Shown here: piece by piece, positions 1-45,401 of the stretch
How the letters are laid out: each line of letters starts with the position of its first letter
Numbering within the stretch: the stretch's first letter is position 1
Source of the DNA: a virus
DNA: 64,000 nt
Reading direction: 5' to 3' (one strand)
IMG/VR virus record: IMGVR_UViG_3300032770_000014
Span: 29,617-93,616 of that record
The notes under the pieces: model-generated
Told to the model about the DNA's origin: nothing
Seen by the model: only the letters and a program-made list of their open reading frames with translations
Database searches by the model: none
Program-made: the position numbers and the translations under genes

Positions 1-1976
1 TAACCGACGTGGCCTCGCCAACCGTCAATGGTACATACACGCTTGGATGGGTAGTGACTGGAAGCGCAGCCTTAGCGCCGACTGCCATCAACGCTAACAC
101 GCTGTCCGTGAGCAGCGCGTCTACCGCAACCACAGCCACGAACGCAACCAATGTAGCGACCACGACCACGAGCAGCAACACGACGTACTATTTGGCGTTG
201 CTCGCGGCGAACGCCACGGAGAATCAAGGCGTGCTGGTAGCTTCGGGTCCGACCTACAATCCTTCGACTGGCGCGTTCTCGGTTGGCGGCGGCTCATCGC
301 ATGGCATCACCATCCCGGCTGGATCAGCGGTAGCAGGTAGCTCTGGGAACGTGGTCATCTCCTCGGATGCCACTTATGGATACTTGGAAGCTAACGAGAA
401 CAACACCGGCGCATCGCGTGTTTGCACAGCGGCAAACGGCATCTGCGCCCCTGCTTCAGCGATCCCGATAGCCGATGTAGGCAGCACAGGCTTGCAAGGC
501 ACAGCGCCTATCTCGGTAGCGTCCACGGGCACGATCTCGGTAGCGGCGGCGACGACAAGCGCCTTGGGCGTAGTCGAAACGGACGCGGCGGGAACGCTCT
601 CGAACTCCAGCGGCCTGATCGCGGTAGCCAAGGTGCCTTATGCGCTGACGTTCAACAATGGCGGATCTGGAGCGGCCAGCGGTCAGACCTTCGACGGCAG
701 CGCGGCATATACGATTAGCTACAACACTCTGGGCGCGGCTCCCACGGCGAACCCGACCTTTACCGGGACACTGAATGCGGCTGCCCTTACCGCCAGCGGG
801 ACGATCACGCTTTCTGGGATTGAAGGCGTATCAACCTACTGCGTGCAGGTTAGTTCGACAGGCGTCCTGAGCAACACGGGAGCAGCGTGCGGCAGCGGCG
901 GAGGCGGCGCGGTTAACTCGGTTAGCAACTCCGATGGGAGCCTGACGATCTCACCAACTACCGGCTCCGTCGTGGCTTCGCTGAATCTTGGGAATGCGCA
1001 GACTTGGACCGCGAAACAGACCTTCGGGACCAACATCAGCATCGGCGGCGTAACACCCTCCGGCGCAACCGGCACAGGCAACGTCGTGTTCTCAGCGTCT
1101 CCGGCGCTCACTGGCACACCGACCTTCGCCAGCGGCTTTGCGGCAGCTACGGCGGGAACCGGATCAGCGGGAACCTCGACGGCTTGGCTGAGTGCCCTCT
1201 ACATTGGCAACGGAACTTACTACTCGGAAATCACGCCTGCCAGCCCTGCGGCGAATGAGAGTATCGCCATGCCGACGACAGCCACGAGCACGGACACCTT
1301 CGCAGTTCTGGGTACGCAGCAGACCTTCACGGCAGGCCCAAAATTCAGCACGGTCGCTCCCACGATTGCGATGACGAGCAATCAACTGATCACCGGGACT
1401 GGCTCGAACCTCACCACGCTGACCTTCCCCGTGCCGTCGGGCGGGGTTACGCTGACCTTCCCGATTACGAGCGAGTACATGGTCGGGGCGAACTCGGATA
1501 CGACTACGACCCACGTTCTCCATGCAACGGCTGTAGCGGGAGTCTTCAACTCCGCAGCGATTGCGGCGGGTGATCTTCCGGCTGCTGGAACTGCCACGTT
1601 AGGCGCGGTGAGCACGGGTACATCCACGAGCAGCGGTATTGCAAACTCTAGCGGCGCAATCAGCGTGGTGAACTTTGTCGCCGATGTGACATTCACAATC
1701 GCTTCGAGCACCACTATTAACGCCAACTCCTGCTCTCCGGCATCGAGCAGCAGTGGAACCTCAGTCAACATGACGGGGCTTACCTCGACGATGGCGATGA
1801 TGGTCACGCCGAACACAGACCTTACAAACATAACAGGATGGGGCAACCCCGCAGCGGGCGTGCTCTACATTACCGTCGCTCCCGGCTCTGGGGCGTTCAC
1901 TTATCACGTCTGCAACAACACGGGTTCAAACATCACGACCGGTGGCTCGGCAACCTTCAACGTGAGTGCGCGATGA
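1..1976 (+). CDS. Tail fibre/adhesin-like Thr/Ser/Ala/Gly-rich protein (5'-truncated)
   Basis: Frame is open from the window edge. Low-complexity beta-rich repeats, paired Cys (YCVQVSSTGVLSNTGAAC) and a compact C-terminal domain; lies upstream of lysis-like genes. Confidence 0.6.
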   Translation, partial: TDVASPTVNGTYTLGWVVTGSAALAPTAINANTLSVSSASTATTATNATNVATTTTSSNTTYYLALLAANATENQGVLVASGPTYNPSTGAFSVGGGSSHGITIPAGSAVAGSSGNVVISSDATYGYLEANENNTGASRVCTAANGICAPASAIPIADVGSTGLQGTAPISVASTGTISVAAATTSALGVVETDAAGTLSNSSGLIAVAKVPYALTFNNGGSGAASGQTFDGSAAYTISYNTLGAAPTANPTFTGTLNAAALTASGTITLSGIEGVSTYCVQVSSTGVLSNTGAACGSGGGGAVNSVSNSDGSLTISPTTGSVVASLNLGNAQTWTAKQTFGTNISIGGVTPSGATGTGNVVFSASPALTGTPTFASGFAAATAGTGSAGTSTAWLSALYIGNGTYYSEITPASPAANESIAMPTTATSTDTFAVLGTQQTFTAGPKFSTVAPTIAMTSNQLITGTGSNLTTLTFPVPSGGVTLTFPITSEYMVGANSDTTTTHVLHATAVAGVFNSAAIAAGDLPAAGTATLGAVSTGTSTSSGIANSSGAISVVNFVADVTFTIASSTTINANSCSPASSSSGTSVNMTGLTSTMAMMVTPNTDLTNITGWGNPAAGVLYITVAPGSGAFTYHVCNNTGSNITTGGSATFNVSAR

Positions 1977-3496
1977 AAAAGATTCTCTCAATCCTGCTCC
2001 TTTTTCCGCTGCCTATATTGGCGCAGTACACGGTTCCGACGTATGTGATGGGGCCAATTTCCTTGCCCCCTCCTGCTATAACCAAGGCCATCGTCACCGC
2101 GTCCACCACGAACGCGAACTCCTACACCACCGGCTCGTTCTCGCCAGCGTCCGGCGTCCTGCTCTATGTCGAAGTGATCGCTTCGGGCACCACGGACCCC
2201 GGCACCAGCGTCACCGAATCCGCTTCGGAGACAACCTTCTCCCTGATCGGGACGGCGGTCACGGCGAGCAGCGCAAACACGCTCTATGCCTATGTGTCGA
2301 ACGGCAAGACTACTTCGACAACCTCGCGCACAGTGACATTCAACTGTCCTAATACCGCTGCGACGGGTGCTTTGGTCGGTGTCTACGCGATTACCAACAT
2401 GACGGCTCTGGGCCTAAGCGCCTTCGTACAAGAGGCAGTCGCTAACAACGTCGGCGCTTCGACAACCCCGGCGCCTGTCTTTCCTTCGGCCGTGCTAACC
2501 GCCGACCCTGTGCTGGCCTTTGTCGGCAACGCAACCAACCCCGGCGGCATCACGGCTCCCTCAAGCTGGCATACGACCGACTCCTACGGGTATGCCACAC
2601 CGACGACTGGCTTCAGCGGCTCCTATATCAACTCTGGGTTCACGGGCACGACGGTGACATGGGGCAGCACGTCCACCGCCCATGGCGACTTCGCGGTAGA
2701 GCTTACCAGCGGATCAGGGCCAGCCGCCGCGACCAAGACCTTCTACGCTGTCGATTCGATCATCACCGCAAATGGGACACCCGTGGGCACGACGGCGACT
2801 GTAGCGAACATGAATGCCGGAACCTATGGGAAACTGCATTCGTGGAGTTCAAGTTCCATAGGTGATTTCTCATTTGCTGCGAGCCAGGTTGCCCTGCCGG
2901 CCAGCGTGCCTGTGAACAGTTGCGGGACGTGGCCGCAGAACATGTCTTTGCAGAGCATAGCGTGGAACGATACAGTGACATACGCATATCCGCAAATGGA
3001 TATTTCCAGCACATCACCCGCAAAGGCCGTCTTTACTGGATACTTTAAGTTCAACACTCCGGATCAGGGCGGCAGTGGGGGTCAGATGGATCGTGTCTAC
3101 GCGGCGTTTGAAAGCGGCGATTACTGTGTGATCCAACAGCAAACAGGCACCGGAGCGGGAGCACCCTGTAGTGGTTATGGAGTTGAGATTGAAGGGAAGA
3201 ACACTGGCGCTGGCGGCACGGTACACAGCTCTGGCTGTGTGCCTATGACTCCGGGTACAGGTTATTGGTATACCTTTCTTGTGGACAGCACGGATAAGGT
3301 CTGCAAGTTACAGGTGTACGACTCGACTTTCACAACGCAGGTGGGGAGTGAACTCACGCTCACAATCTCAACAAGTGACACTCTAGGTGTGATTAAGTAC
3401 GGTAACGGCGAAGGCGCGTCCAGTTCGACCACTTCGTATTATCAGTATGGTATGGTGGATGTGACCAATGCGACCTATCCGAACATCCCGCATTAA
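1973..3496 (+). CDS. Exported Ser/Thr-rich beta-sandwich protein (possible lectin-like C-terminal domain)
   Basis: ATGA overlap with the upstream stop; signal peptide MKKILSILLLFPLPILA|Q. Start taken at 1973 rather than the ORF-track 1838. Confidence 0.6.
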   Translation: MKKILSILLLFPLPILAQYTVPTYVMGPISLPPPAITKAIVTASTTNANSYTTGSFSPASGVLLYVEVIASGTTDPGTSVTESASETTFSLIGTAVTASSANTLYAYVSNGKTTSTTSRTVTFNCPNTAATGALVGVYAITNMTALGLSAFVQEAVANNVGASTTPAPVFPSAVLTADPVLAFVGNATNPGGITAPSSWHTTDSYGYATPTTGFSGSYINSGFTGTTVTWGSTSTAHGDFAVELTSGSGPAAATKTFYAVDSIITANGTPVGTTATVANMNAGTYGKLHSWSSSSIGDFSFAASQVALPASVPVNSCGTWPQNMSLQSIAWNDTVTYAYPQMDISSTSPAKAVFTGYFKFNTPDQGGSGGQMDRVYAAFESGDYCVIQQQTGTGAGAPCSGYGVEIEGKNTGAGGTVHSSGCVPMTPGTGYWYTFLVDSTDKVCKLQVYDSTFTTQVGSELTLTISTSDTLGVIKYGNGEGASSSTTSYYQYGMVDVTNATYPNIPH

Positions 3497-3497
3497 C

Positions 3498-5555
3498 ATG
3501 AAAAGCCTCGCTCTCATCCCGTTCCTCTTCGCTTCGCTCGCCTTTGGGCAGGCATGGTCCGGAATCCTCGCTACTTCTCGCGCGATGGACTGGACCACGG
3601 CCGGCGCAGGAACAATCCCTACCCGCACAACCTACTGCACGACGACTGCCTGCACGACGCTATGCGGTACCCCGCAATCTGACAACACCTGTCACGGCGG
3701 AACGGTCACGGCGACGACGATCACGAACGCGGTCAACTCGGCCAGTAGCGGCCAAGTCGTGCGTATTCCCGACGGATCGTTCACCGTTGCGGGGTTCAAG
3801 ATCGGGGTCAGCAACATCTCACTGCGGGGTGCAGGTCCGAACAAGACTTTCCTTGTCCTCTCTGGCAGCGGCTACAACTGCAACGGTCCTGATGCGGCGA
3901 TCTGCGTCTGGAACGGTGACGGTAGTTGGTGGGGAGGGCCGGACAATGGCCCAGTGAGTTGGACGGCGAGCAGCTATGCTCAAGGCACCACAACCATCAC
4001 CCTTGCCAGCCACGCGAACCTGAAAGTCGGAACGCTGCTCACGCTGATTCAGGAGGACGACACGTCAAACTCCGGTACCGGCTGGCTGGACTGCGGAGCC
4101 GAAGCGACGTGGTGCTCGCAGCAGGGCGCATCGAACAGCCAATGGGTCACTTACTACTATTCAGGGAATGGAGCGACCGAGGCCGAGAACGTGACAGTGA
4201 CCGCCTGCGGTACCTCGACCTACGGCGCATCCTGCAGCAGCAACACTGTGACCTTTACGCCGGGTCTGCGAGCGCCTAACTGGACTTCGAGCAAGACGCC
4301 GGAAGCGACTTGGCCGAGCAGTCTTCCGCTGACAGGTGTCGGCCTTGAAAGTTTCTCCATGGATTGCTCTGGCGCGACTGTGGATTGCGTGCAGTTCGAG
4401 GGCGATACGGCAAGTTGGGCCGAGTACCTGCGGACTAACTCGATCGGCTCCCTTCATTACGCCTTGGACATGTCCTCGCACATCACCGTTTTTTCGAGCT
4501 ACATGTACGGCGGTTCGGGATCTTCGGAAGCCTATGGCGTGGACAGCGAGAACGGGAGCGCGGACAACCTCGCTCTGAATAACATCTGCAACCACAATGC
4601 GAACTGCATGGCGGCGGAAGGGGGCGACTCCGGCACAGTCTTTGCCTACAACTACTCAGTCGATGACTACTTTGGGCCGGGGCAATACCAGCAGGGACCG
4701 TTCACGCACTCGGCCGGGAACCACATGGAACTCTGGGAAGGCAACGACTTTCCCGACATCCAGAACGACATCATCCACGGGCCGAGCAATGCCGGCACAG
4801 TCTACCGCAACCACCTGACGGGCCTCGACCCGATTACCAGCGCGAACAACGGCGGCGACGGGCCAAAGACCATCGGGACGACTGCCCTCAACATCGGGGC
4901 CACAAATCGCTACTACAACGTCGTCGCCAACGTTCTCGGTACCTTAACGCACCACACTCTCTATCAGGACTCTGCGCCGAGCACGTCCGCCTGCACGCTC
5001 ACGAACGAATGGACTTCAGTCTTCCCGGTCTACCTGCTTGGCTATTCGGACCAGTGGGGCGGGGCGTTCACTTCAGGTTGCGGTCTGGGAAGTCCAAATA
5101 TCAACAACGACCTTGCGGTAGGCACCACCCTGATGCGGTGGGGGAACTACGATACTGTGACCGGGACGATCAGGGAATGCTCTGCCGCGTCGCCCTGCTC
5201 CGGCGTGGACGAGGCGGGGGACGGCGCGAACACCTACCCGGCCCTCAGCAGCCCTGCCACGAGCTTTCCGGCGAGCTTCTTTCTCTCGGCCGAGCCTTCG
5301 TGGTGGGTGTTTCCATCGGGAACCGCGGCGCCGTGGCCCGGAACCGGCCCGGACGTGACCGGCGGGGATATCTCAGGGACCGGCGGGCACGCCAACCTCA
5401 ACCCGGCAGCCAACTGCTACCTGAACGTCATGGGCGGATCGACAACAGGGTCTAGCGGCTGGCTCACGTTCAATCCAAGCGCGTGCTATCCGACGAGTCC
5501 GGCTGCGCCGACAGGATTGACGGCGGTAATTATGACAGGAGTGAGCGCACAATGA
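3498..5555 (+). CDS. Exported parallel beta-helix (pectin lyase-like) protein, possible depolymerase/tailspike
   Basis: Signal peptide MKSLALIPFLFASLAFG|Q; beta-helix N-cap-like TITNAVNSASSGQVVRIPDGSF...ISLRGAG; Asn/Gly ladders; many Cys. Confidence 0.65.
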   Translation: MKSLALIPFLFASLAFGQAWSGILATSRAMDWTTAGAGTIPTRTTYCTTTACTTLCGTPQSDNTCHGGTVTATTITNAVNSASSGQVVRIPDGSFTVAGFKIGVSNISLRGAGPNKTFLVLSGSGYNCNGPDAAICVWNGDGSWWGGPDNGPVSWTASSYAQGTTTITLASHANLKVGTLLTLIQEDDTSNSGTGWLDCGAEATWCSQQGASNSQWVTYYYSGNGATEAENVTVTACGTSTYGASCSSNTVTFTPGLRAPNWTSSKTPEATWPSSLPLTGVGLESFSMDCSGATVDCVQFEGDTASWAEYLRTNSIGSLHYALDMSSHITVFSSYMYGGSGSSEAYGVDSENGSADNLALNNICNHNANCMAAEGGDSGTVFAYNYSVDDYFGPGQYQQGPFTHSAGNHMELWEGNDFPDIQNDIIHGPSNAGTVYRNHLTGLDPITSANNGGDGPKTIGTTALNIGATNRYYNVVANVLGTLTHHTLYQDSAPSTSACTLTNEWTSVFPVYLLGYSDQWGGAFTSGCGLGSPNINNDLAVGTTLMRWGNYDTVTGTIRECSAASPCSGVDEAGDGANTYPALSSPATSFPASFFLSAEPSWWVFPSGTAAPWPGTGPDVTGGDISGTGGHANLNPAANCYLNVMGGSTTGSSGWLTFNPSACYPTSPAAPTGLTAVIMTGVSAQ

Positions 5556-6157
5556 AGACTATCATCGCAATCGCGCTCTGTCTTGGTTCGCTCGCATGGG
5601 GCCAGCGCAACGAGCTTGGCGTCTACGCGACCGGCAACCTCAACCCGCAGTACATCGTGAACCTTGAGCACGGGGCTAACCCGATCCTGGGCAGCAACAA
5701 GTCCACATGGGGCTACGGCTTCAGCTATGACCGCTTCTGGGGGAACTTCGGCGCTGGCTTCCTCTACGAGCAGAACCCGAAGTCAGACGGCAAGCTGGTG
5801 GTGCCAGACGGTTGCTGTTCGCTCTTGCAGGCCAAGACCTATATCTGGCCGCTCGATCGATGGGACTTGGCGGCGCTCGCCACGTACCGGATGCCCGTCG
5901 GGAAAAGCCGCTGGACCGTCTTCGCGCAGGCAGGACCGGGGTGGGTCATCACCAATGGCGGGTCGAACTCTGGGGTCAGTGAAGACTTTGCACTGGTATC
6001 CGGCCTGGGCGTGGACTACCGGATTCGTAGTCGGTGGAAGCTCCGGGCGGGTGAGACGTTCCTGAACACGCATCAGGGATGTTATGGCGATCCAACGTGC
6101 TCTGAAACATGGAGCCTGATTCAAGACTTGCGAGTAGGGGTTGTGACCACTTTCTGA
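5552..6157 (+). CDS. Outer-membrane beta-barrel protein (8-stranded type)
   Basis: Signal peptide MKTIIAIALCLGSLAWG|Q; amphipathic strands (WTVFAQAGPG, GLGVDYRI); terminal Phe (LRVGVVTTF), consistent with a Bam beta-signal. Confidence 0.7.
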   Translation: MKTIIAIALCLGSLAWGQRNELGVYATGNLNPQYIVNLEHGANPILGSNKSTWGYGFSYDRFWGNFGAGFLYEQNPKSDGKLVVPDGCCSLLQAKTYIWPLDRWDLAALATYRMPVGKSRWTVFAQAGPGWVITNGGSNSGVSEDFALVSGLGVDYRIRSRWKLRAGETFLNTHQGCYGDPTCSETWSLIQDLRVGVVTTF

Positions 6158-6167
6158 GAGGTGCTAG

Positions 6168-6428
6168 GTGGCTGAAAATGAGGTTGAGTGTCCAAAGCAG
6201 GAAGGATGTCCACTTGGACTCACCGGAGGCAAGGTTGCCCTCATGGAGGAGCATGTGAGTAAACTGATGAAGACCGTCTATGGAGATGGCAACGGCAACG
6301 AAGGACTACAGCCGCTCGCACAACGCCGCGAGGCTCAGATGGCTCTCCTGCTCTACGTCTTTGGACCATCCAGCATCCTTGGCCTGATATTTGCTTTCAT
6401 CACTCTGATTTTGCAAGCAAGACACTAA
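6168..6428 (+). CDS. Small membrane protein with C-terminal TM helix
   Basis: GTG start with RBS; VYGDGNGNEGL motif followed by a hydrophobic C-terminus; located in the lysis region. Confidence 0.55.
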   Translation: MAENEVECPKQEGCPLGLTGGKVALMEEHVSKLMKTVYGDGNGNEGLQPLAQRREAQMALLLYVFGPSSILGLIFAFITLILQARH

Positions 6429-6437
6429 GGAGAATCT

Positions 6438-6953
6438 ATGAAAAACCGTATCTACGCAGCCCTCGCCTCGCTCTTGGCGCTGACCATCGTCGCCGGGTGC
6501 CGCGCACAGCAGCCGCCCTCGCCCACGGCTTACACCTGTCCCACGGCTGTCAGCGGTGGGACCACCTACACGGAGATCAACCCGCCAGCCAGCAACCTCG
6601 TAGCGGCCTCAATTACCACCACCAGCTACAAGTGGACCCCCTCCACAGTAGGCCCGTATTGCGCCATAGTCCAGGCGTGGGGGCTTCCTGCCGGGGCGAC
6701 GGTCTATCAGGTCAGTTCGCCATCAAACGTCGTCCAGATCACGAATACGGCGACTGACCCGGTAATCGACTTCAGTTGGACAGCCCCCGCCACGAACGGC
6801 ACCTACTCGTCCTACACGTACATCCTGAGCTATGCGGCGGCGACGGCAGTAACGACGGTCCCGACGGCTCCAGCCTTGGCAACACCGACCATCAGCACGT
6901 CCATGGTGGAGAGCCCGCAAATAATTCTCTCCGCCAGCCTTGGAAAGCGGTAA
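6438..6953 (+). CDS. Exported/lipoprotein-like protein with possible FnIII-like fold
   Basis: AAGGAG RBS; signal with a lipobox-like VAGC, or alternatively an SPI site GCRA|Q. Confidence 0.6.
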   Translation: MKNRIYAALASLLALTIVAGCRAQQPPSPTAYTCPTAVSGGTTYTEINPPASNLVAASITTTSYKWTPSTVGPYCAIVQAWGLPAGATVYQVSSPSNVVQITNTATDPVIDFSWTAPATNGTYSSYTYILSYAAATAVTTVPTAPALATPTISTSMVESPQIILSASLGKR

Positions 6954-6975
6954 ACTCTAACTCGAAAGGATTGCT

Positions 6976-7182
6976 ATGAACTGGAGTGATCTTCTCAGCA
7001 ACAAGTATTTCACCGCAATCGAGGCTGCGGTCGCTGCGTTCCTTGTGACGTTCTTCTACAACTGGTGGACCGCTGGCGCAGCGTGGCCGATCAACTGGCA
7101 TTCGCTGGTCACGGGCGTAGTCGGGGCGGTGATCCTCGCCGTCTATAACCTGTACAAGCAGTCGCCGACAGCGAAGCCATGA
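6976..7182 (+). CDS. Putative holin (2 TM)
   Basis: 68 aa, two hydrophobic helices, basic C-terminus, upstream of peptidase and lysozyme-like genes. Confidence 0.55.
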   Translation: MNWSDLLSNKYFTAIEAAVAAFLVTFFYNWWTAGAAWPINWHSLVTGVVGAVILAVYNLYKQSPTAKP

Positions 7183-7358
7183 GCACCCCTATCAACTTTG
7201 GCGCAGCCTTGCAGCAGCTCTCTGACGATCTGCACCAGTTCTTCGTGAAGGCCAACACGGCGCTCGATACGGTCAACTTAGTGCTCAACGAGGCTGTGCA
7301 GGTGGAGAAGGACGCTGACGACAAGATCATCTCAATCCACTGGCGCTGGCCGTTTTAG
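7179..7358 (+). CDS. Hypothetical protein (59 aa, below ORF-track cutoff)
   Basis: ATGA overlap with the holin-like gene; MSTPINFGAALQQ...HWRWPF*; exactly fills the gap to the next RBS. Confidence 0.55.
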   Translation: MSTPINFGAALQQLSDDLHQFFVKANTALDTVNLVLNEAVQVEKDADDKIISIHWRWPF

Positions 7359-7368
7359 GAGAGAATCA

Positions 7369-8157
7369 ATGGCATTCGACATCTTCAAAGGCGGCAAGCT
7401 CGCGCCAGTTCACCTGCCGTGGCACGTCGCCCTCAGTGACCACCTTGACGCCGCCGCCAGTTGGCCCCCAGTCCCGCCGCAGGGATGGGAATACGCCGTA
7501 CCCCAGTCCGAGATGAGTGTGCTCGGCAACGACCAGTATGGATGCTGCGCCGAGTCCGGAGCGTGCGGCCTAGCGCAGATACAAAGCTGCAACGCTAATC
7601 CCACTGACCCCTTCGTTCCCACGACCGCCGAGGCGCTGGCGCTCTACACTGCCGTCACCGGGTTCAACCCGAACGATCCGAACAGCGACCAAGGGACAGT
7701 CTTAACCGACCTGCTCACCTACTGGCAGAACACCGGCTTCGAGTTGACTACCCGCTCCGGCAAGACGCGCCTAAGCCAGATCGTCGGGTGGGCCTCGCTC
7801 GACATTTCCAGCTTCGCGCTGCTGCGGTGGGCCGCGTACACGTTCGGCGGCTCCTACCTTGGCATCCAGTGCCCACAGAAGTGCGAGACGGACACAACCA
7901 ACTGGAACTTCGGTCCTGGTCTGCCTATCGCTGGCGGTCACTGCATTGTGCAAGCGGGCGAGGGCGCAGCTGGCGGCAAGATGCGCACGTGGGGTCTGTT
8001 CATTCCCGCATCGGCTGGCTTTATGGGCGCGTACATCGACGAGGCCTATATCATTTGCTCAAAAGACTGGGTTAATAATCAAGATAAGAGTCCGTCAGGC
8101 TTAAATCTGGATAGCCTTCTTGCAGCAATGAAACTAGCGGGATCGAGTTCACAATGA
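7369..8157 (+). CDS. Papain-like cysteine peptidase-fold protein
   Basis: GNDQYGCCA (catalytic Cys region), GGHCI (His), and a TWG motif. Confidence 0.6.
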   Translation: MAFDIFKGGKLAPVHLPWHVALSDHLDAAASWPPVPPQGWEYAVPQSEMSVLGNDQYGCCAESGACGLAQIQSCNANPTDPFVPTTAEALALYTAVTGFNPNDPNSDQGTVLTDLLTYWQNTGFELTTRSGKTRLSQIVGWASLDISSFALLRWAAYTFGGSYLGIQCPQKCETDTTNWNFGPGLPIAGGHCIVQAGEGAAGGKMRTWGLFIPASAGFMGAYIDEAYIICSKDWVNNQDKSPSGLNLDSLLAAMKLAGSSSQ

Positions 8158-8900
8158 GTAGAGCGAAAATTCATTCCGGCGTTTGCCTTGCCTGTTGTTG
8201 CTCTTTCCCATCCGAGAGAACCAAGACACAATTTTGTAGTCGAAGCTGTGCATCGAAGGCTACGCAGCGTATGCGCAAGGAACGCGGAGACTTTAAAAAC
8301 AAAATCTTGGATCATGTAATTCTTCGCGCAGTGAATTTAATTAACTCAGGTATGACTTGGAAGAACGCGGCCAAAGCTATAGGGTTGGACCATACGACCT
8401 TGCGCAAAAGAGTTAGACTCCTTGGTTGTCCTGTTCGCCGTGGACTCCGTGGCAGCAGACTACCAAGGACTTTGAATGTTCCCACCGATGACGCTACTCT
8501 AGCCTATATTGCAGCGATGATTGATGGAGAGGGATCAGTCCAAATGTGTAGGGGGAAACGGCTCTCGCTTTGCGTCTACATTTACAACACTAGTCTTGAT
8601 TTGATGAAATGGCTTGCTTTGGTTGGCGGCGTGTATGTGCCTCGGCACACGTTGCCGCATCGTAAGCAGGGCTATGAGTGGCGAGTAAAAGGCAGGGAAG
8701 ACGCCCTTGCTTTGCTCATGGCCGTTGAGCCTTTCATGATTATTAAAAAGAAACAGGCCCACGAAGCTATTGAATTTTTGCAAAGGGAAATCGGAAAGAA
8801 CTATTTCAACGCGCAAAACGTATCACCAACGGGCTTGAATCTCAACAGCCTTGTCGCCGCCATGCAAGCGGCCAAGCGCAACAGACCACCTGCAATTTGA
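8154..8900 (+). CDS. Free-standing LAGLIDADG homing endonuclease with N-terminal Zn finger and HTH
   Basis: LAYIAAMIDGEGSV motif, VEPFMIIKKKQA, CxxC...FCSRSC; AT-richer than its neighbours. Confidence 0.85.
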   Translation: MSRAKIHSGVCLACCCSFPSERTKTQFCSRSCASKATQRMRKERGDFKNKILDHVILRAVNLINSGMTWKNAAKAIGLDHTTLRKRVRLLGCPVRRGLRGSRLPRTLNVPTDDATLAYIAAMIDGEGSVQMCRGKRLSLCVYIYNTSLDLMKWLALVGGVYVPRHTLPHRKQGYEWRVKGREDALALLMAVEPFMIIKKKQAHEAIEFLQREIGKNYFNAQNVSPTGLNLNSLVAAMQAAKRNRPPAI

Positions 8901-8915
8901 AAAGGAGCTAACCAC

Positions 8916-9482
8916 ATGAAATCGCTTTTCGCAGCACTCGCAGCACTCATCCTGCTCATGCTCGTGATCCCTGGGTACGCGCAAGTCACCACGCAAGCTA
9001 CCGCCTCAGCGATCCACTACGACGGCGCTTGGACCGCCGGAACCGAAGAGACGGAGAGCCTGCCGGTGGTCTACCTCGGCGCAGCGAAGAACAACATCGT
9101 ATCGCTCGGCGCACGGGAGATCATTAATCCGGGCTACTGGAACATGTATGGCGCTCTCGGCAACTACCAGCCTGACCTGACGTGGCTATTCAAGCACACG
9201 GCGCTCGATCCGTCGCAGTTCACGCTTTCCTTCGATGTGGATGGTGGGATAGCTACGCTGACAGATGGCGGGACAAAACCGGCAGTCGAGGGCCGCGCTA
9301 ACTTCCAGTACGCGCTGACGGCCAACACCGCGCTCACAGGCGGCTACGCTGGCGGCGGCATGATTGGCGGCAAGCCATTTGGCGTGGTCAGCGTGGGATT
9401 CGCGTACCTGTTTGGTGATCCTAACTCGACGCAGAGCATGAGCCGGAAACGGTTTCTGCTCAGGCAAGCAATCAAGAAGTAA
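8916..9482 (+). CDS. Exported protein, probable beta-barrel
   Basis: AAAGGAG RBS; signal MKSLFAALAALILLMLVIPGYA|Q; amphipathic strands ending VSVGFAYLF plus a basic tail. Confidence 0.55.
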   Translation: MKSLFAALAALILLMLVIPGYAQVTTQATASAIHYDGAWTAGTEETESLPVVYLGAAKNNIVSLGAREIINPGYWNMYGALGNYQPDLTWLFKHTALDPSQFTLSFDVDGGIATLTDGGTKPAVEGRANFQYALTANTALTGGYAGGGMIGGKPFGVVSVGFAYLFGDPNSTQSMSRKRFLLRQAIKK

Positions 9483-9485
9483 GCC

Positions 9486-9800
9486 ATGCCCTCCATAACC
9501 CCACTCACGCCCGCCGAGTGCCGCCAGATCGACTGGGAAGTCTCGCACTACCCGTGGTGGCGCAAGCGGCTTATCGAACTGGACATCTTCATCAATGTCT
9601 GGTTCCTCAATGGCCTGCTCGGCGAAACAATCTCAGCCCGCGCCGGCCGGATGGCCTACCGGCACCGGTGGTGGGCCGAGTGGCTCTGCGACTTTCTGGA
9701 CCTGATCGAGAATAACCATGGCCCAAAGGCGGTAGAGGCTGATCGCTACCGCGCCTGGCTGGTCGAGCAGGCCGAGCTTAATTCGGGGTTGCTGACATGA
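9486..9800 (+). CDS. Conserved phage hypothetical protein
   Basis: ETISARAG...WLCDFLDLIENNH pattern, recognised from small phage proteins near lysis genes. Confidence 0.55.
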   Translation: MPSITPLTPAECRQIDWEVSHYPWWRKRLIELDIFINVWFLNGLLGETISARAGRMAYRHRWWAEWLCDFLDLIENNHGPKAVEADRYRAWLVEQAELNSGLLT

Positions 9801-10171
9801 CCATCATGCAAGGAATCGCGCGAGAAGAGGGATTCTACGTTGAGGACAGCCGGTCCCTAAGGAACTTTAACCCCGGAAACCTCGACCTCGAACCATGGCT
9901 TGAGCGTCCCCCCTACAACGCCGTCCTTGAGACGATCCCACACGGCTACCACGAGACGCCGCGCTTTGCCAGCTTCCCGTCCGCTAACGCTGGCTGGAGC
10001 GCCATGCGCGACCTGCTCACGAAGGACTATATCGGCATGAACGTGGCCGCAGCAATGAACAAGTGGGCGCCGCCGAGCGACGGCAACGACACTTCAGCCT
10101 ACACGGAGACGATCTGCAAACTGTGCAGCGTCACGCCAGAGACGATCCTGACGGCTGAGTTGATCGGGTAG
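9797..10171 (+). CDS. Lysozyme-like protein (P5-like family), candidate endolysin
   Basis: RNFNPGNL...FASFPS..AGWSAM...KWAPPSDGNDTSAY motifs. Confidence 0.7.
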   Translation: MTIMQGIAREEGFYVEDSRSLRNFNPGNLDLEPWLERPPYNAVLETIPHGYHETPRFASFPSANAGWSAMRDLLTKDYIGMNVAAAMNKWAPPSDGNDTSAYTETICKLCSVTPETILTAELIG

Positions 10172-10231
10172 AGCTTCACTGCAAGGGGAAGAGAAAGGAG
10201 GCGGAGCAGAGCCGTACAAACCGCATTGCAC

Positions 10232-10260
10232 GCGAGGGCCGGAGCAATCCGGCCTTTCGC
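10232..10260. terminator. Hairpin between convergent gene blocks (probable terminator)
   Basis: GCGAGGGCCGGA-GCAA-TCCGGCCTTTCGC: GC stem with a GNRA loop at the +/- convergence. No long U-tract. Confidence 0.55.
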
Positions 10261-10270
10261 GTCGGTGGGG

Positions 10271-10633
10271 TCACTTCTTCGCCGGTTCTTCCTTCGATGT
10301 CACCGATGGCTGTAGCGGCTTTGCTACGCACGCCGGGTCGCCGCTTCCATCAAGCTGCGGTATAAGATTCTCGCCACACGCTTTCACTAGCTCTTGGATT
10401 ACGCCCTGAAGGGCAACAGACGTATCCTGTAGCTTTTTCTGTGCCGCCTGAAATTCGGCCTGCGCCTGCCGGTTCAGGTCATCAACCTTGAAATACTTGG
10501 CCTTCAATTCAAGGGAGATAGTGGGAGCTTCCGGAGCCTTCGCTGGCGGCGATGTAGGCGGCTGCTGTGCGGTTGCGGCGTAGGCAGCGAGGCAGAGCGC
10601 GGTGAGGGCGATGAGGCGGATGAACAACTTCAT
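10271..10633 (-). CDS. Exported coiled-coil protein
   Basis: Signal MKLFIRLIALTALCLAAYAATA|QQ; coiled coil; Cys pair. Confidence 0.6.
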   Translation of the reverse strand: MKLFIRLIALTALCLAAYAATAQQPPTSPPAKAPEAPTISLELKAKYFKVDDLNRQAQAEFQAAQKKLQDTSVALQGVIQELVKACGENLIPQLDGSGDPACVAKPLQPSVTSKEEPAKK

Positions 10634-11106
10634 TTCGATTTCTCCTTTTTGGATGGTTGATCTTGGTCTGAAAAGTACCAGTCTGCATCGCCTGTGATGT
10701 AGCCGCAGGGCATATCCTTCTTTGGCGATGCTGTGGTTTTCCTAGATGTGAGTATCTTATCGATCTCACACAAGTCTCTCTCATGAGCGTCTAGCTCCTT
10801 ACGGAAAGCATCGTATATCTGATCGCGGTTTGCGGACACTTCGTCGTATCGCCGCTGGAGATCAGCAATGTACGCCGCCACATCATCGAGGGTGCGACCT
10901 TCGGGTAAAGTGCATTTGGTCAAATCACCCCTCGCACAGATGATTAGCACGCCCCCATCTGAGGGCAATGCTGGACTGATGGTGGTGTAGTACGTTTCTA
11001 CTGATGGGAGAGGTGCCCGCGAGGAGCCGTCATAGGTTGTTGCTGGTACGCTCTGCCCCAGGACCGGCAACGCCGCGAGCAAAAGTGACGCGATGAGATG
11101 TTTCAT
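10630..11106 (-). CDS. Exported protein
   Basis: AAGGAG RBS; signal MKHLIASLLLAALPVLG|Q. Start taken at 11106. Confidence 0.6.
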   Translation of the reverse strand: MKHLIASLLLAALPVLGQSVPATTYDGSSRAPLPSVETYYTTISPALPSDGGVLIICARGDLTKCTLPEGRTLDDVAAYIADLQRRYDEVSANRDQIYDAFRKELDAHERDLCEIDKILTSRKTTASPKKDMPCGYITGDADWYFSDQDQPSKKEKSK

Positions 11107-11135
11107 GTTTCTCCTTCCCAGTCCTGGTCGCGGTT

Positions 11136-11537
11136 CTAGTCGTCGGTGGCCTTCATGCCGCGCTGCAAGTCGTCTAAGGCTGCACGCTCGCGAATAAGGA
11201 TTGCTGTGCCGTGCTGGCTCCATGTTGCGCGGACTCGCCCAACGCGAAATAACCACACAATATCTTTTTTGCGCTCTGCGATCTGGCGCTCCCGCTCCAC
11301 GGTGAAGAGGTAGGCGGCGTGGATAGCTTTCGCTCTTCCTTCAGGGCTATCATCCTCCTGCCATTCTTTAAAAGAATTGTCATGCCACTTGGCGTCTGCT
11401 GGCATGAGGAATATGCCGATATGAAATTGGTCAGTTCCATAGGAATCAAGATCACGAACCCACGTTCTGACGTATTTCCACCGCGCTTTTATGTACTTCC
11501 GCTCCTGCTGCTCGGTAAGTGGCTGCTGCTCAATCAT
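11136..11537 (-). CDS. Hypothetical protein
   Basis: Tightly packed ORF within the minus-strand operon. Confidence 0.5.
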   Translation of the reverse strand: MIEQQPLTEQQERKYIKARWKYVRTWVRDLDSYGTDQFHIGIFLMPADAKWHDNSFKEWQEDDSPEGRAKAIHAAYLFTVERERQIAERKKDIVWLFRVGRVRATWSQHGTAILIRERAALDDLQRGMKATDD

Positions 11538-11673
11538 CGTCTTTCCCTACCTTTCTTATAGCCGCCTTCAAGTCCTGAAGATAGCAGATAATCACGAACG
11601 CGAGTACGCCGCTCCATACAAATAGGAGCACGAACGAGCAAAAGATAACATTCGCCAATCTATCCAGCGTCAT
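11530..11673 (-). CDS. Small membrane protein
   Basis: MTLDRLAN... with a single TM segment; overlapping start/stop packing. Confidence 0.45.
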   Translation of the reverse strand: MTLDRLANVIFCSFVLLFVWSGVLAFVIICYLQDLKAAIRKVGKDDD

Positions 11674-12085
11674 GCTCGGCTCCCTTCGCTTGCACGGAAC
11701 GGGGGCTGTAAGAAGTGCGTGGATTACAGCAATTTGCCGCATTAATGGAATCCACGATAGACTGCGGATCGTTCTCTTCATACCATTTGCGATCTCGCTC
11801 CTGTTCGACTTCTTGGAATCCGCCAGATTCCCCTAAAAATTTTTCGCCTCGTGGTTGGTCATCACCCTCTATCACATCTTTCTCGCTGACCGGCGCTTTC
11901 AGCCGCGCGTTCTCAGCCTCTAGCTCGGTGATGCGCAACCGTAAATCAGCGATGCCCTTGGTATGTTCGATAAGTTCGCCTATCTCTTCATGGTTAATTC
12001 TTATCGAAACACACTCATCTTCACGAGCAAACTTACTCCTCAATTCAAGGGCTTCCAAGATAGTCTCAATCGGCGTCTCAGTCAT
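11660..12085 (-). CDS. Hypothetical coiled-coil protein
   Basis: RBS before MTETPIET; LRITELEAENARLK heptads. Confidence 0.5.
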   Translation of the reverse strand: MTETPIETILEALELRSKFAREDECVSIRINHEEIGELIEHTKGIADLRLRITELEAENARLKAPVSEKDVIEGDDQPRGEKFLGESGGFQEVEQERDRKWYEENDPQSIVDSINAANCCNPRTSYSPRSVQAKGAEHDAG

Positions 12086-12266
12086 GCTTCCCTTCCTTCT
12101 GCTTCTGGATGTTCCGCCATGCGTCGGCCCATGCTTGTCGATCCTGTCGATTGTATCCAACGCGTTCGCCTAAGAGCCTACCACCGGAAAACACACAGAT
12201 GGATCGAATGCTATATTCAAGACGGGCATCCGGGTAGACCTGCTTCACTCTCTGCTCTGAAGTCAC
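12078..12266 (-). CDS. Hypothetical protein
   Basis: MTSEQRVKQVYPDA...AWADAW small phage-type ORF with coupled start/stop. Confidence 0.5.
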   Translation of the reverse strand: MTSEQRVKQVYPDARLEYSIRSICVFSGGRLLGERVGYNRQDRQAWADAWRNIQKQKEGKHD

Positions 12267-12703
12267 TTCCGTTCTCCCTTCTGCCCTAGCAGGCGAGTGC
12301 TAACCCTAGCAATCTCTGCTGCTATCCACGCTGGTGATTCTTTTCGCAGCCGCTCATCGTAGTGGCGCAGAGCGGCGAGCATCCCCGCTTCACCACTGCG
12401 TCCGGATGGGCCAATCTGCTGCTCAAAAGTATCCAGACACTCGCTCACCATATCCTGCTCGATCACGCGATGCAAAAAAGCAGGCGCGACGAGCGGCTCA
12501 GCGGGCGATTCATACTTTTTACGCGCTTCGCCAAAAGTGCGCGGCTCGGTAGCGAGCGCGGTCTGGCTGCATAGCTCTAAATCTTTAATTCGTTTCGCAA
12601 GGTTGATTACCGCCCCTGCGATAATCTCTGGCTCATTTGTATGGTTAAGTATTTCCCTCACCACATCCAAGTCGCCATACATCACTTCACTGAGTTGACT
12701 CAT
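12263..12703 (-). CDS. Hypothetical protein
   Basis: Coupled ORF within the operon. Confidence 0.5.
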   Translation of the reverse strand: MSQLSEVMYGDLDVVREILNHTNEPEIIAGAVINLAKRIKDLELCSQTALATEPRTFGEARKKYESPAEPLVAPAFLHRVIEQDMVSECLDTFEQQIGPSGRSGEAGMLAALRHYDERLRKESPAWIAAEIARVSTRLLGQKGERK

Positions 12704-12704
12704 A

Positions 12705-12875
12705 TTATTTTCCCTTCTCCACCAGCCTCTCGCCGTCCCACACCAGCCGCCGTTCCGCTGCTACCTCGCCATACTTCGTGCTCCGCCGCTCCCACGTCAC
12801 TCGACTTACCCTGCACCGGCAGACCTCAACGCCGTCGATCACGCGCGGGGCCTGGTTGCAGATGGGGCAGGTCAC
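12705..12875 (-). CDS. Small Cys-containing protein (56 aa)
   Basis: GTG start overlapping the upstream stop; CPIC...CRC; fills the gap. Confidence 0.45.
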   Translation of the reverse strand: MTCPICNQAPRVIDGVEVCRCRVSRVTWERRSTKYGEVAAERRLVWDGERLVEKGK

Positions 12876-13171
12876 TTCAACGCCTCAGAGATTTCTTCTC
12901 GCATGATTTCGCGTATTACTTCTTCCAGTGTCGGTGGAATAACTGGCGCGGTTTCTTTTGGTAAACCAAAACTGCCGGGGTGCATGATACCCATCGCTAC
13001 AATGCACTCCTCGCACCAGTGCCGCGTGGGAATCGCCGCGTCAACCCACCCATCCCGGCTCCATGACGCCCCTATTCTCACTGTGATAGGTTTCAAGAAC
13101 CTGTCATTATCAACTGCCGACTTGCCGCATCGATCACATGTGTACGTTGTTGTTTTTGCCATCACGTTCAC
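12872..13171 (-). CDS. Zn-finger protein
   Basis: CDRC...CEEC. Confidence 0.55.
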   Translation of the reverse strand: MNVMAKTTTYTCDRCGKSAVDNDRFLKPITVRIGASWSRDGWVDAAIPTRHWCEECIVAMGIMHPGSFGLPKETAPVIPPTLEEVIREIMREEISEALK

Positions 13172-13485
13172 TCTCCTCTCTGCTCCCTGTCAGATGGTCT
13201 TACCTTCTCCCGCCCCCCTGTCCCCTCTGCCTCTTCTGCCTCGTCCTCATCTTCTTCCTCATCCTCGCCCTCTCCCTCCTCCTCTTCCTCGCCTCCATGA
13301 AACTCGTCGCAGCAATCCTGCCCACAGAACACGTTCCCTTCCTCGTCCCACACCACCATAGCCTCGTCCCAGAATTCGTCCTCGGGGGGGTCATATCCGT
13401 TGTAGCCACCACTACCATTAGGCAAGGCAGGATAGGCCCGGCCGATCGCATCGCCGCAGTTCGAGCATTCAATCAACTGGCTCAT
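13168..13485 (-). CDS. Acidic Zn-finger protein
   Basis: MSQLIECSNC...FCGQDCC followed by a poly-Glu tail. Confidence 0.5.
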   Translation of the reverse strand: MSQLIECSNCGDAIGRAYPALPNGSGGYNGYDPPEDEFWDEAMVVWDEEGNVFCGQDCCDEFHGGEEEEEGEGEDEEEDEDEAEEAEGTGGREKVRPSDREQRGE

Positions 13486-13937
13486 AGGATCTCTCCGGCG
13501 GAGGCCGCTGCTTGCTGCGCATGCTTCTGGGTTAGATCGTCCACAGTGGCCAGTGCGCGCTCGGTAAAGGTGACGTCCTGCCCCAGCTCCCTTCCCGGCT
13601 CCCGCTCCCCCTCCTTCCCGCATCCCCTTGCCTGCAAACTAGCCGCGTCCTCGATCATCACCTGGGCGCCATCCAGCGAGCGGAACTCCAGCTCGGCCAC
13701 CGGCACGATCTCATAGCGATCCGGCTTGTAGGTCCAGCCCCAGAGAGCGATCATCTCGGCGTTCTTTCTCTCCCACGACTCTTTCCGCGCCCGCTCGCGC
13801 CGACCGATCGCCTTCTCAGCATCCTCGCGCGACAACCACAACCCCACCAGCTGCGCGTCTGCCTCTTCGATCTCCCCACGCTCGTCGCGCTCGATCTCAA
13901 CCGTGCAGACGGCGTAACATGCGAAGTTAAATCTCAT
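13482..13937 (-). CDS. Hypothetical protein
   Basis: Coupled ORF within the operon. Confidence 0.5.
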   Translation of the reverse strand: MRFNFACYAVCTVEIERDERGEIEEADAQLVGLWLSREDAEKAIGRRERARKESWERKNAEMIALWGWTYKPDRYEIVPVAELEFRSLDGAQVMIEDAASLQARGCGKEGEREPGRELGQDVTFTERALATVDDLTQKHAQQAAASAGEIL

Positions 13938-24497: not shown

Positions 24498-25212
24498 CGA
24501 TCTCGACCAGCCCTTCCTTCGGGTGGTTAGGCCTTTCTGACTCAGGCCACAAAATTTCGTTAATGATCCTACTCACATGCGCTGGATGGCAACCAAACAT
24601 CTTGCCTAACTCCTTTTGGTTGGCCTGCTTTTCACGGTAGAGAGTTCTCATCCGACCTACATCCTCCCAAGTCAAGTGGCGCTCGTAAGGATTCGTCCGT
24701 CCATTGCGGTGCGCAGCTCGCCATATCTCACAAACGCTCCTCACCTTCTTCCGCTTGCGCCGCATTTCTGCCACGTCGTCAGGAGTTGCGGTAAGAAGCC
24801 ACGCAATCTCAGTTTGGGAGCGCCCTTCATCAAAAAACCATACAGCAATCTGATCCATTTGCTCAGGAGTAAAATGATGTTTTCGGTTACCAATTTTGAA
24901 CGCATGGTGTTGGTTGCCTTGAACTGTGACGTATTCCAGATTCTCTGGGTTATTGTGTGTATGTACAGCATCAAGGTGGTTGACTTGGTAGCCTATTGGA
25001 CGCGGACCAATAAACGCCGCTGCAACCAAAAAGTGAACATAAGCTCGTGCTTGGTCGCGCTGCTTACCGCCTGGTAGATGAACTACTGGATAACCGTTTC
25101 CTGTAGCAGGACTAGCCTTCAACACTCTCAGTGATCGGACTCGTCCAAGTGAACTCACCTGTAACCTTCCTTCAAATCCAGGAACATCCCTCCAAACCTC
25201 TTGATTGTCCAT
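24487..25212 (-). CDS. NUMOD4-HNH homing endonuclease with C-terminal HTHs
   Basis: EVWRDVPGFEGRLQVSSLGRVRS; VHFLVAAAF; VNHLD...NNPENLEY; AT-rich. Confidence 0.88.
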   Translation of the reverse strand: MDNQEVWRDVPGFEGRLQVSSLGRVRSLRVLKASPATGNGYPVVHLPGGKQRDQARAYVHFLVAAAFIGPRPIGYQVNHLDAVHTHNNPENLEYVTVQGNQHHAFKIGNRKHHFTPEQMDQIAVWFFDEGRSQTEIAWLLTATPDDVAEMRRKRKKVRSVCEIWRAAHRNGRTNPYERHLTWEDVGRMRTLYREKQANQKELGKMFGCHPAHVSRIINEILWPESERPNHPKEGLVEIDGH

Positions 25213-25224
25213 AAAGCAACTGTA

Positions 25225-40457: not shown

Positions 40458-40805
40458 ATGTCCGATTCCGTCGAAATCCTCTCTCCCCTCGCCCCGCGCG
40501 CCCTCTTGCGCCGCCTTGACTCCCCTGCCACTGCCTCCTCCCCCTACGTCGTCCCCGACAGCGCCAAGGAGCGCGGCACGGAATGCGAGGTCGTGGCCAT
40601 CCCCGACCCGCCTGTCTACGTGACCGAGTGGGGCATACGGCTGCTCTGCCCGGTCAAGGTTGGGGACCGGGTGCTGGTCGGCAAGTACGCCGGAGATTAC
40701 CGATTCAGGAATGAAGACGTGACCTTGGTTAGATGGGACGAGATTCTGGCCGTCATCGCCGACGAGAAGAACGATAAGAACGAGAAGGAAGAGCTGATCC
40801 CATGA
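40458..40805 (+). CDS. groES: Co-chaperonin GroES
   Basis: PL..R.L...VVPDSAKE....VVA...VKVGDRVLVGKYAG...DEILAV. Confidence 0.9.
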   Translation: MSDSVEILSPLAPRALLRRLDSPATASSPYVVPDSAKERGTECEVVAIPDPPVYVTEWGIRLLCPVKVGDRVLVGKYAGDYRFRNEDVTLVRWDEILAVIADEKNDKNEKEELIP

Positions 40806-45340: not shown

Positions 45341-45401
45341 GTCGCATCCTCGAAGCCTACCGCCGGGGCCAGCAATCGCCTATTGCCAAAGGGGGATAGA
45401 G

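Follow-up and report, generated by a model that had tools for sequence, protein, structure and literature searches.

A short-tailed soil phage with eight predicted Sec-exported proteins that carry glutamine at position +1

The first 11,106 nucleotides of a 64,000-nucleotide stretch of viral DNA (the window; bases 29617-93616 of the 93,616-bp IMG/VR record IMGVR_UViG_3300032770_000014) encode, in whole or in part, eight proteins with a predicted Sec-type signal peptide (leader), each with Gln as the first residue (+1) after the predicted cleavage site. Coordinates refer to the window unless the contig, i.e. the full record, is named. The eight proteins are very probably exported; this is well supported because leader and Gln are conserved in homologues, and the parity and pairing of the cysteines agree with oxidative folding in an extracytoplasmic compartment. 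An operon at the fibre position comprises four of the genes, which encode a fibre-like protein, a probable lectin-like protein, a β-helix protein and a small outer-membrane β-barrel. In the accepted view, the assembly of tailed-phage particles takes place wholly in the cytoplasm. We give an about even chance to the reading that the fibre-like and lectin-like proteins, perhaps together with the β-helix enzyme, are recognition and polysaccharide-cutting gear that joins the particles around lysis.

Exported proteins and the fibre-position operon

Signal peptides were called with a heuristic of our own that ignores the +1 residue; for E. coli Skp, Ivy and DpaA it returned the cleavage sites already known. 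The initial annotation had described seven N-termini as Sec leaders followed by Gln, and all seven were recovered: in each, a basic n-region is followed by a hydrophobic core free of charges and then by a small-x-small site. The predicted sites (arrows; gene starts in brackets) are ILA↓Q (1973), AFG↓Q (3498), AWG↓Q (5552), CRA↓Q (6438) and GYA↓Q (8916) on the plus strand and ATA↓Q (10633) and VLG↓Q (11106) on the minus strand. An eighth case is the gene for the fibre-like protein, which is cut by the window edge and whose N-terminus that annotation had singled out for inspection: it carries a Sec-type leader followed by Gln (PLSLWG↓QASN). Two independent versions of the +1-blind heuristic detected no further credible leaders in the 93.6-kb genome, and Gln at +1 and a small-x-small Sec-type site are each present in 8/8 predicted phage leaders. 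The combination of leader and Gln is kept at 30-45% identity in the viral relatives of the 685-residue β-helix protein (11/11 of those with an intact start), in all checked relatives of the N-terminal module of the fibre-like protein and in cellular homologues. Ten leader-bearing proteins of relatives were scanned against Pfam and PHROG, with two weak matches as the only result. The Bacteroidota-type O-glycosylation motif D[ST][AILVMT] occurs at 0.38 per 100 residues in the exported set versus 0.24 in the remaining proteins, a difference too weak to claim.

The high cysteine content ascribed to the large exported proteins in the initial annotation is borne out, although the excess is modest (1.84% in the exported set versus 1.34% in other phage proteins). 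After removal of the predicted leaders, the counts are 34 (fibre-like protein), 6 (507 residues), 20 (685 residues), 4 (201 residues), 2 (171 residues), 0 (188 residues), 2 (120 residues) and 4 (158 residues). All eight counts are even, versus 30 even and 29 odd among the other phage proteins (Fisher p=0.015), and 83% of the cysteines in the exported set have a partner 2-25 residues away, versus 62% elsewhere (p=0.0007). This parity and close pairing have the look of disulfide-bonded extracytoplasmic proteins.

The record is an essentially complete ~93.4-kb short-tailed phage from soil. A 236-bp direct repeat (235/236 identical) is present at both record ends and CheckV estimates 93% completeness, so the genome is taken to be essentially whole, as opposed to a prophage flanked by host DNA. 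Among its products are a major head protein, a P22-like portal, an SU10-type adaptor, a large terminase and a family-A polymerase; no integrase was detected among the phage genes. No relative was found among the deposited phages of INPHARED, either by DNA or by capsid protein, while 15 IMG/VR contigs, among them complete ~100-kb relatives, encode portals that are 52-83% identical.

The gene for the fibre-like protein and the three that follow it are translationally coupled in a single operon, in agreement with the tightly coupled run noted in the initial annotation, with ATGA overlaps at 1973/1976 and 5552/5555 and a 1-nucleotide spacer at 3496/3498. The five leader genes other than those starting at 1973, 3498 and 5552 have AGGAG-type ribosome sites. 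The treatment of the seven genes as a single system does not hold up: four of the eight leader genes make up the fibre-position operon (one of them encoding the outer-membrane barrel), a further two belong to the lysis region and the last two are encoded on the opposite strand.

The fibre-like protein contains 2051 residues, of which the C-terminal 657 are encoded in the window (1-1976, plus strand); its start is at contig 25437, 4.2 kb before the window, and its N-terminus reads MSWSAKVACAIGMMLSVVLAPLSLWG↓QASN. The first ~125 residues comprise the leader and an N-module of ~95 residues with an invariant cysteine pair (C55/C64), after which the body is mosaic; the 34 cysteines of the mature protein are mostly in close pairs. 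The N-module is rare, with four metagenomic proteins only, one of which is named as a parallel beta-helix repeat protein. It is 37-45% identical in four relatives (G006, G007, G008 and G009, of which G006 and G008 are complete), where it heads proteins of 520, 902, 1321 and 1723 residues that all start with a leader followed by Q-[AS]-x-N. The fibre genes of these relatives come after homologues of the genes for the 802- and 994-residue proteins of the present phage and before further open reading frames (ORFs) with a leader followed by Gln. In one relative, the GDTMTG...YVD region of the 520-residue protein matches a minor tail protein family (phrog_1446, E=6e-6); a protein of another relative gives a weak SGNH esterase match below the cut-off. 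Short segments of the C-terminal 657 residues recur at 65-83% identity in twenty giant proteins on phage-sized contigs, with a leader followed by Gln in at least 12/19 and several leaderless. The fibre-like protein itself has no Pfam or PHROG match, and PDB sequence searches with it and with the 507-, 345- and 1393-residue proteins gave none. Its mosaicism, its layout of conserved N-terminus and variable C-terminus and its gene position are those of virion fibres. The motif TACCG-N12-TATCCT is located upstream of both the fibre gene (contig 25115) and the portal gene (window 60260-60282); the relaxed form TACCG-N12-T(A/T)nnCT has one match in the window, which is not above chance (0.36 expected). 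Directly 5' of the fibre gene and overlapping its start is a small conserved Cys/His ORF (...GREVCLNNPAGRAEY...WEPTGQLRDDRL...; L002:5200-5440, i.e. contig 25200-25440), which in two relatives (L135 and L136) is in frame with the fibre gene, with no stop between them.

The 507-residue protein (1973-3496, plus strand; leader ending PILA↓QYTV) probably consists of two LamG/concanavalin-like jelly-roll domains and would then be lectin-like. Its look-alikes in the Atlas are viral Laminin_G_3 clusters with scores of 0.76-0.81, which, being below 0.9, serve as a lead only. About 30 of its 42 relatives are leaderless, with the conserved domain starting from about residue 3, and a leader followed by Gln is found in the closest relatives only (73-81% identity). 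The leaderless relatives are encoded on 43 viral contigs with a G+C content (GC) of 0.39-0.69 and, where the flanks are long enough, are situated within structural (tail/head) modules: between a tape-measure gene and a minor-tail/fibre gene in L225, and near major head and internal virion protein genes in L197 and L201. Because a lectin-like phage protein made in the cytoplasm reaches sugar only within the particle, the family is most simply regarded as a virion component, and the leader would then most simply be a derived feature in phages of the present type. A leader-bearing member of the family is also found in another large soil phage contig, L200 (IMGVR_UViG_3300011271_000002, 104 kb, GC 0.56), where the locus 3300-13600 contains at least six leader-bearing ORFs, several with Gln at +1.

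The 685-residue protein (3498-5555, plus strand; leader ending LAFG↓QAWSG) is a probable polysaccharide lyase or hydrolase. Its AlphaFold (AF2) model is confident at residues ~40-390 only, with an overall predicted local distance difference test score (pLDDT) of 53 and a poor C-terminal half. The confident part is predicted to be a right-handed parallel β-helix, for which the best Foldseek matches are LKA1 gp49 (E=1.5e-8), K1 capsule lyase, GH110 and GH28, and the family profile matches pectin-lyase N-termini weakly. The initial annotation had proposed looking for tailspike or fibre folds; a tailspike-depolymerase-like β-helix was found for this protein, and the model of the fibre N-module gave no fold.

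Homologues of the 685-residue protein were found on 12 viral contigs and at 80 cellular loci. Q18 and certain cysteines are invariant across the family alignment, the cellular proteins start alike (...↓QxWSG), and viral and cellular members have in common a conserved core, QxWSG...RAxDW, from +1 onward. In the acidobacterial isolate KBS 89 the homologous gene lies amid glycosyltransferases, a UDP-glucose dehydrogenase, a Wzx flippase and a Wzy polymerase, and Wzx or Wzy is present in 32/41 loci with full 10-kb flanks; the capsid, portal and terminase of the present phage were found in 0/80 cellular loci. In a FastTree phylogeny of 85 sequences, the 12 viral copies are dispersed among the cellular ones with at least nine label changes, no better than for shuffled labels, which indicates that the gene has moved repeatedly between acidobacterial chromosomes and phages, with the leader kept in the phages. 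The present copy falls in a well-supported Terriglobia clade with L054, L031, L030 and L101, all of which are Wzx/Wzy-cluster genes. Ordinary chromosomal homologues, which the initial annotation had regarded as speaking against its proposal, were thus found for this gene only; the relatives of the fibre-like and 507-residue proteins belong to phage structural modules. Such exchange would give phages of the abundant, exopolysaccharide-rich Acidobacteria of soil a route by which to gain polysaccharide-cutting enzymes from host biosynthesis clusters.

Near-identical β-helix genes also occur on short contigs binned as archaeal ('Methanobacteriota' and 'Thermoplasmata') metagenome-assembled genomes (MAGs), and further copies in Eisenbacteria, Doudnabacteria and Saccharibacteria MAGs; the loci are L059, L061, L069 and L105, and also L089, L046 and L079. 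Wrong binning of contigs from acidobacteria or phages is the probable cause. L089, the sister of the viral L004, contains at least three large ORFs with a leader followed by Gln.

The last gene of the coupled run (5552-6157, plus strand; leader ending LAWG↓QRNE) encodes a 201-residue outer-membrane β-barrel. It matches the Pfam family OMP_b-brl (PF13505, E=7.6e-9, 36.4 bits versus a cut-off of 28.7) and ends in ...VVTTF, with the aromatic C-terminus that is usual for barrels.

Glutamine at +1 and the likely host

The frequency of Gln at +1 was determined with the same +1-blind heuristic in three 400-kb samples, from the acidobacterial isolate KBS 89, an acidobacterial MAG chromosome and E. coli K-12 (Acidobacteriota, G001:C1:1-400000, L112-L131, and G004:C1:1000001-1400000, L142-L161; E. 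coli, W01, L162-L181). Gln occupies the predicted +1 position in 23/61 leaders (38%) of KBS 89 and 22/68 (32%) of the MAG, versus 3/53 (6%) in E. coli (Fisher p=1.5e-5), while its frequency at +2 to +12 is ~6% in all three genomes. The true acidobacterial rate is likely to be higher, since many of the 'misses' are obvious false positives or have a small-residue/Gln junction 1-3 residues off. At an E. coli-like rate of 5%, eight Gln in eight leaders would have a probability of P=4e-11; at a host-phylum rate of 0.4-0.7 it is P=0.0007 to 0.06, and at 0.6-0.7 it is P=0.02-0.06. Gln at +1 is therefore the general habit of the host phylum and not specific to the phage or to the cassette, and 8/8 is unremarkable if the true host rate is 0.6-0.7.

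The initial annotation had linked the Gln residues to the Q-rule of Bacteroidota. This was right in kind; the phylum is different, as the bias is a general habit of what is most likely an acidobacterial host. The Q-rule has been called exclusive to Bacteroidetes in studies that did not look at Acidobacteria (Bochtler et al. 2018, PMC5837995; Szczesniak et al. 2023, PMC10653852), and we found no report in the literature of a Q-rule or a glutaminyl cyclase in Acidobacteria. As in Bacteroidetes, where the bias extends to all envelope compartments and a pyroglutamate cap is expected to protect the exported proteins (PMC5837995, PMC10653852), the present proteins combine a Sec leader with predicted cleavage before Gln; the cases differ in the likely host, in a raw Gln +1 rate of 32-38% against an E. 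coli background of 6%, and in that cyclization to pyroglutamate is presumed here. A several-fold enrichment of Gln at +1 in Acidobacteriota would widen the Q-rule and raise the question of the cyclizing enzyme, and the +1 residue of phage leaders could serve as a cue in host prediction.

The host is most likely to be an acidobacterium of Terriglobia type. This assignment is based on the distribution of homologues, the placement of the β-helix gene among Terriglobia, the nearest look-alikes of a tail protein and the GC: 57 of the 80 cellular homologues of the 685-residue protein are labelled Acidobacteriota (Terriglobia, Acidobacteriaceae, Bryobacterales and others) and none Bacteroidota, the nearest Atlas look-alike cluster of the 1393-residue tail protein is mostly Acidobacteriota, and the GC of the phage is 58.2%, versus 58.5% and 58.7% in two Acidobacteriota genomes.

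Virion association and its alternatives

In the reading that we prefer, the eight proteins would be made with cleavable leaders of the Sec/signal peptidase I type, and cleavage would expose Gln, the +1 preference of the host phylum itself; pyroglutamate would presumably form and protect the N-terminus as in Bacteroidota. The four coupled genes, at a T7-like fibre position and presumably expressed late, would supply the fibre-like and lectin-like proteins, the small barrel and a β-helix enzyme captured from, or common with, the Wzx/Wzy exopolysaccharide clusters of the host. The exported proteins would cross the inner membrane, lose the leader and gain disulfides in the periplasm. The gear would meet the cytoplasm-built particles only once holin and lysis proteins have merged the compartments, or in the lysate; it is this docking, above all, that we infer. 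The barrel and the four small exported proteins would be ordinary envelope-directed accessory or lysis-region proteins. The initial annotation had offered virion gear or remodelling of the host surface; export, common to both, is supported, and the choice between the two leans slightly towards virion association for the fibre-like and lectin-like proteins. A mixed outcome, with these two bound to particles and the β-helix enzyme free, is quite possible.

A precedent is the cultured Cellulophaga phage phi18:3 (NC_021794). Its record describes gp085, gp086 and gp087 as virion, structural or tail proteins 'based on experimental MS/MS proteomics' (tandem mass spectrometry), and their predicted leaders are MKNKITIIMILMSISFGYS↓Q, MKKTIYILSILLLTISGVSA↓Q and MKHTFSIVLFFILSIGLNA↓Q; a leader is lacking in nine other proteins annotated in this way. 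As in the present phage, these are consecutive large proteins with a leader followed by Gln, encoded at the end of the structural genes and, in phi18:3, directly before the endolysin. The host differs (Bacteroidota), the proteins contain few cysteines and the record annotation is silent on leader removal. Our estimate for virion association was raised by this mass-spectrometric annotation. Predicted leaders that expose Gln are also known from phages of P. gingivalis ('Nixviridae'), where they were interpreted as an adaptation to the host secretion system (Matrishin et al. 2023, PMC10367356). Those cases concern five proteins of no assigned function in temperate phages of a Bacteroidota host (PMC10367356), whereas the present phage is large, apparently virulent and of another host phylum, and carries fibre-like, lectin-like and β-helix proteins at the fibre position.

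The 685-residue protein resembles tailspike depolymerases (LKA1 gp49, 4ru4; Klebsiella K1 lyase, 7w1c; the HK620 and CBA120 spikes) in fold and in its likely surface-polysaccharide substrate. Known tailspikes are leaderless, reach their fold inside the cytoplasm and bind the particle through an N-terminal domain; in the 685-residue protein the conserved core directly follows the leader, and its closest relatives, unlike those of tailspikes, are cellular enzymes of polysaccharide-synthesis clusters. AlgG/AlgL, PslG, PelA and BcsZ are periplasmic polysaccharide-processing enzymes encoded in exopolysaccharide operons. They offer a parallel as leader-bearing glycan-active enzymes amid glycosyltransferase, Wzx and Wzy genes, although there is no sequence link and the acidobacterial family is uncharacterized; we know of no phage copy of such an enzyme. 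The phage λ proteins Lom and Bor are outer-membrane proteins encoded beside tail-fibre genes. The position of a small outer-membrane barrel gene next to fibre genes is similar here, but the 201-residue protein matches the general OMP_b-brl family rather than Ail/Lom, translational coupling ties its gene to late genes, and no integrase was detected in the phage. Our literature searches turned up no report of Sec leaders on tail fibres. What is new here is the acidobacterial setting with evidence for a Q-rule-like bias in Acidobacteriota, a phage spike-like enzyme directly akin to host polysaccharide-cluster genes, and the split into leader-bearing and leaderless members of one structural family.

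Several observations weigh against particle-bound gear or against parts of the scheme around it. The structure model of the fibre N-module (pLDDT 38) resolves no docking domain, and exported proteins would have no evident route to the particles. The 685-residue protein is collinear with the cellular enzymes from residue 1, with no added N-terminal anchoring or particle-binding domain, so the enzyme may work free. The gene translationally coupled to it encodes an outer-membrane barrel, which is impossible as a part of the virion. The genome also encodes a leaderless fibre candidate of 345 residues, with a tail-fibre N-terminal match (phrog_24607/28473), as well as the 1393-residue tail protein, which has no assigned role. 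The gp085-gp087 proteins gave no tblastn match to the present proteins at E<=0.01, the analogy being one of leader, position and size, and mass spectrometry of purified particles can also catch co-purifying envelope proteins. The plant-type glutaminyl cyclase (PF05096) was detected in 1/5 acidobacterial genomes and not in the phage, and the animal type is not separable from other M28 peptidases with the tools used. The phage portal is absent from 401 sampled Acidobacteriota genomes, which makes the host assignment indirect; this absence fits a virulent phage.

The strongest competing explanation, which is a good deal short of an even chance but a serious one, is that the proteins are exported and never join the virion. 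The enzyme, lectin and fibre would then act free in the periplasm, at the surface or after release, cutting or masking host exopolysaccharide or an O-antigen-type receptor and thereby stopping superinfection, stopping progeny from sticking to debris or clearing matrix for release, while the barrel and the small proteins would alter the outer membrane as Lom and Bor do. The β-helix gene fits this well: its nearest relatives are leader-bearing Wzx/Wzy-cluster genes, viral copies retain the leader, the enzyme lacks an extra anchoring domain and a barrel is co-translated with it. The glycan-synthesis block of the phage (GT4, FkbM methyltransferase, epimerase and two GT2) and the interpretation of the P. 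gingivalis phage proteins as secreted (PMC10367356) point in the same direction. The lectin-like and fibre-like proteins fit it poorly, as most members of the 507-residue family are leaderless and encoded in tail/head modules, where a cytoplasmic lectin-like protein has no obvious role unless in the particle, and as the fibre has the conserved-N/variable-C, mosaic organization and the gene position of a virion fibre. Leader-bearing proteins from an equivalent position were, furthermore, detected in phi18:3 particles, and a Sec leader alone reaches only the periplasm, with no evident route across the outer membrane.

Two further explanations concern the N-termini and the DNA itself. The N-termini could be uncleaved anchors, assembly handles of cytoplasmic fibres or wrong starts, with Gln incidental; the leader predictor is a heuristic, cleavage rests on prediction and the fibre start is uncertain given the in-frame upstream ORF in two relatives. 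We consider this improbable, because viral and cellular homologues at 30-45% identity retain the n-h-c architecture, the small-x-small site and Gln, ribosome sites or ATGA coupling are present at the proposed starts, the cellular homologues from polysaccharide clusters must be extracytoplasmic and the cysteine parity and pairing are unlike those of the cytoplasmic proteins of the phage. That the region is a host DNA island mis-assembled onto a phage, or a prophage with host flanks, might be suggested by the one gene with many chromosomal homologues and by the IMG/VR label 'linear'. We reject it as highly improbable: the contig closes on itself through the 236-bp repeat, the cassette is placed between the tail genes and the lysis block, an arrangement shared with two complete relatives that have terminal repeats, the GC is even across the junctions and no host-type genes flank it.

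Extending the preferred reading of particle-bound gear beyond this genome, we propose, with a confidence somewhat below even, that tailed phages of Q-rule hosts (Bacteroidota and Acidobacteriota) may build fibres and depolymerases in a second compartment, by Sec export, pyroglutamate capping, periplasmic disulfide formation and docking only at lysis, and that phages of Acidobacteria may recruit part of this gear, leader included, from host exopolysaccharide enzymes. The conserved leader on fibre-like proteins in a second host phylum, together with the phi18:3 annotation, makes an extracytoplasmic branch of assembly directly testable. If true, docking at lysis would be a step in tailed-phage morphogenesis that is outside the textbooks, and folding of the fibres and depolymerases of these phages may require expression in the periplasm.

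Lysis region and other genes

The region 6168-10171 downstream of the operon looks like a lysis block, as judged from gene positions and weak matches. Three small membrane or coiled-coil ORFs (6168-7358, plus strand) encode proteins of 86 residues (tail-anchored), 68 residues (two hydrophobic segments) and 59 residues, described from their translations only; none has a family match. They are placed in the lysis region by position, and the 68-residue protein is a holin candidate. The 171-residue exported protein (6438-6953, plus strand; leader ending AGCRA↓QQPPSP) has a Pro/Thr-rich start, and a small partner gene (37% identity) also adjoins the β-helix gene in contig L008. An alternative reading of this protein as a lipoprotein with the lipobox IVAG↓C was dropped, as the L008 homologue has no lipobox and keeps ...VVCRA↓Q. 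Further downstream are a 262-residue cysteine-containing protein (7369-8157, plus strand; phrog_19005, E=1.6e-22), which is conserved in L008 (79% identity) and L004 (tblastn), and the 188-residue exported β-rich protein (8916-9482, plus strand; leader ending IPGYA↓QVTT), which has no Pfam or PHROG family match. Between these two genes is a 248-residue ORF (8154-8900) with a LAGLIDADG-like motif (...AAMIDGEGSV...). A 124-residue protein with a cell-wall hydrolase-like domain (9797-10171, plus strand) matches phrog_873 'endolysin' (E=3.4e-15) and is an endolysin candidate.

The two exported proteins encoded on the minus strand have no family match. The 120-residue protein (10271-10633; leader ending AYAATA↓QQPPTSPP) has a coiled-coil-like middle and an AAGGAG ribosome site, and the gene for the 158-residue protein (10630-11106; leader ending LPVLG↓QSVP) overlaps the next gene by 4 nucleotides. 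The 188-, 120- and 158-residue proteins have no relatives among the viral and cellular loci that were compared.

Elsewhere in the window, the large terminase gene (53073-56585) encodes 1170 residues with a LAGLIDADG domain in the middle of the protein (PF14528, residues 478-522), which would fit an intein or the in-frame insertion of a homing endonuclease. The phage also encodes a GroEL-like chaperonin (40802-42616; Cpn60_TCP1, E=4e-54) and a 190-residue serine recombinase of the resolvase/invertase type (33736-34308; Resolvase and HTH_7). The glycan-synthesis block (43058-50215) comprises a GT4-type glycosyltransferase, an FkbM-type methyltransferase, a nucleoside diphosphate (NDP)-sugar epimerase/dehydratase and two GT2-type transferases, and its products might serve to modify the surface polysaccharide of the host, virion proteins or DNA.

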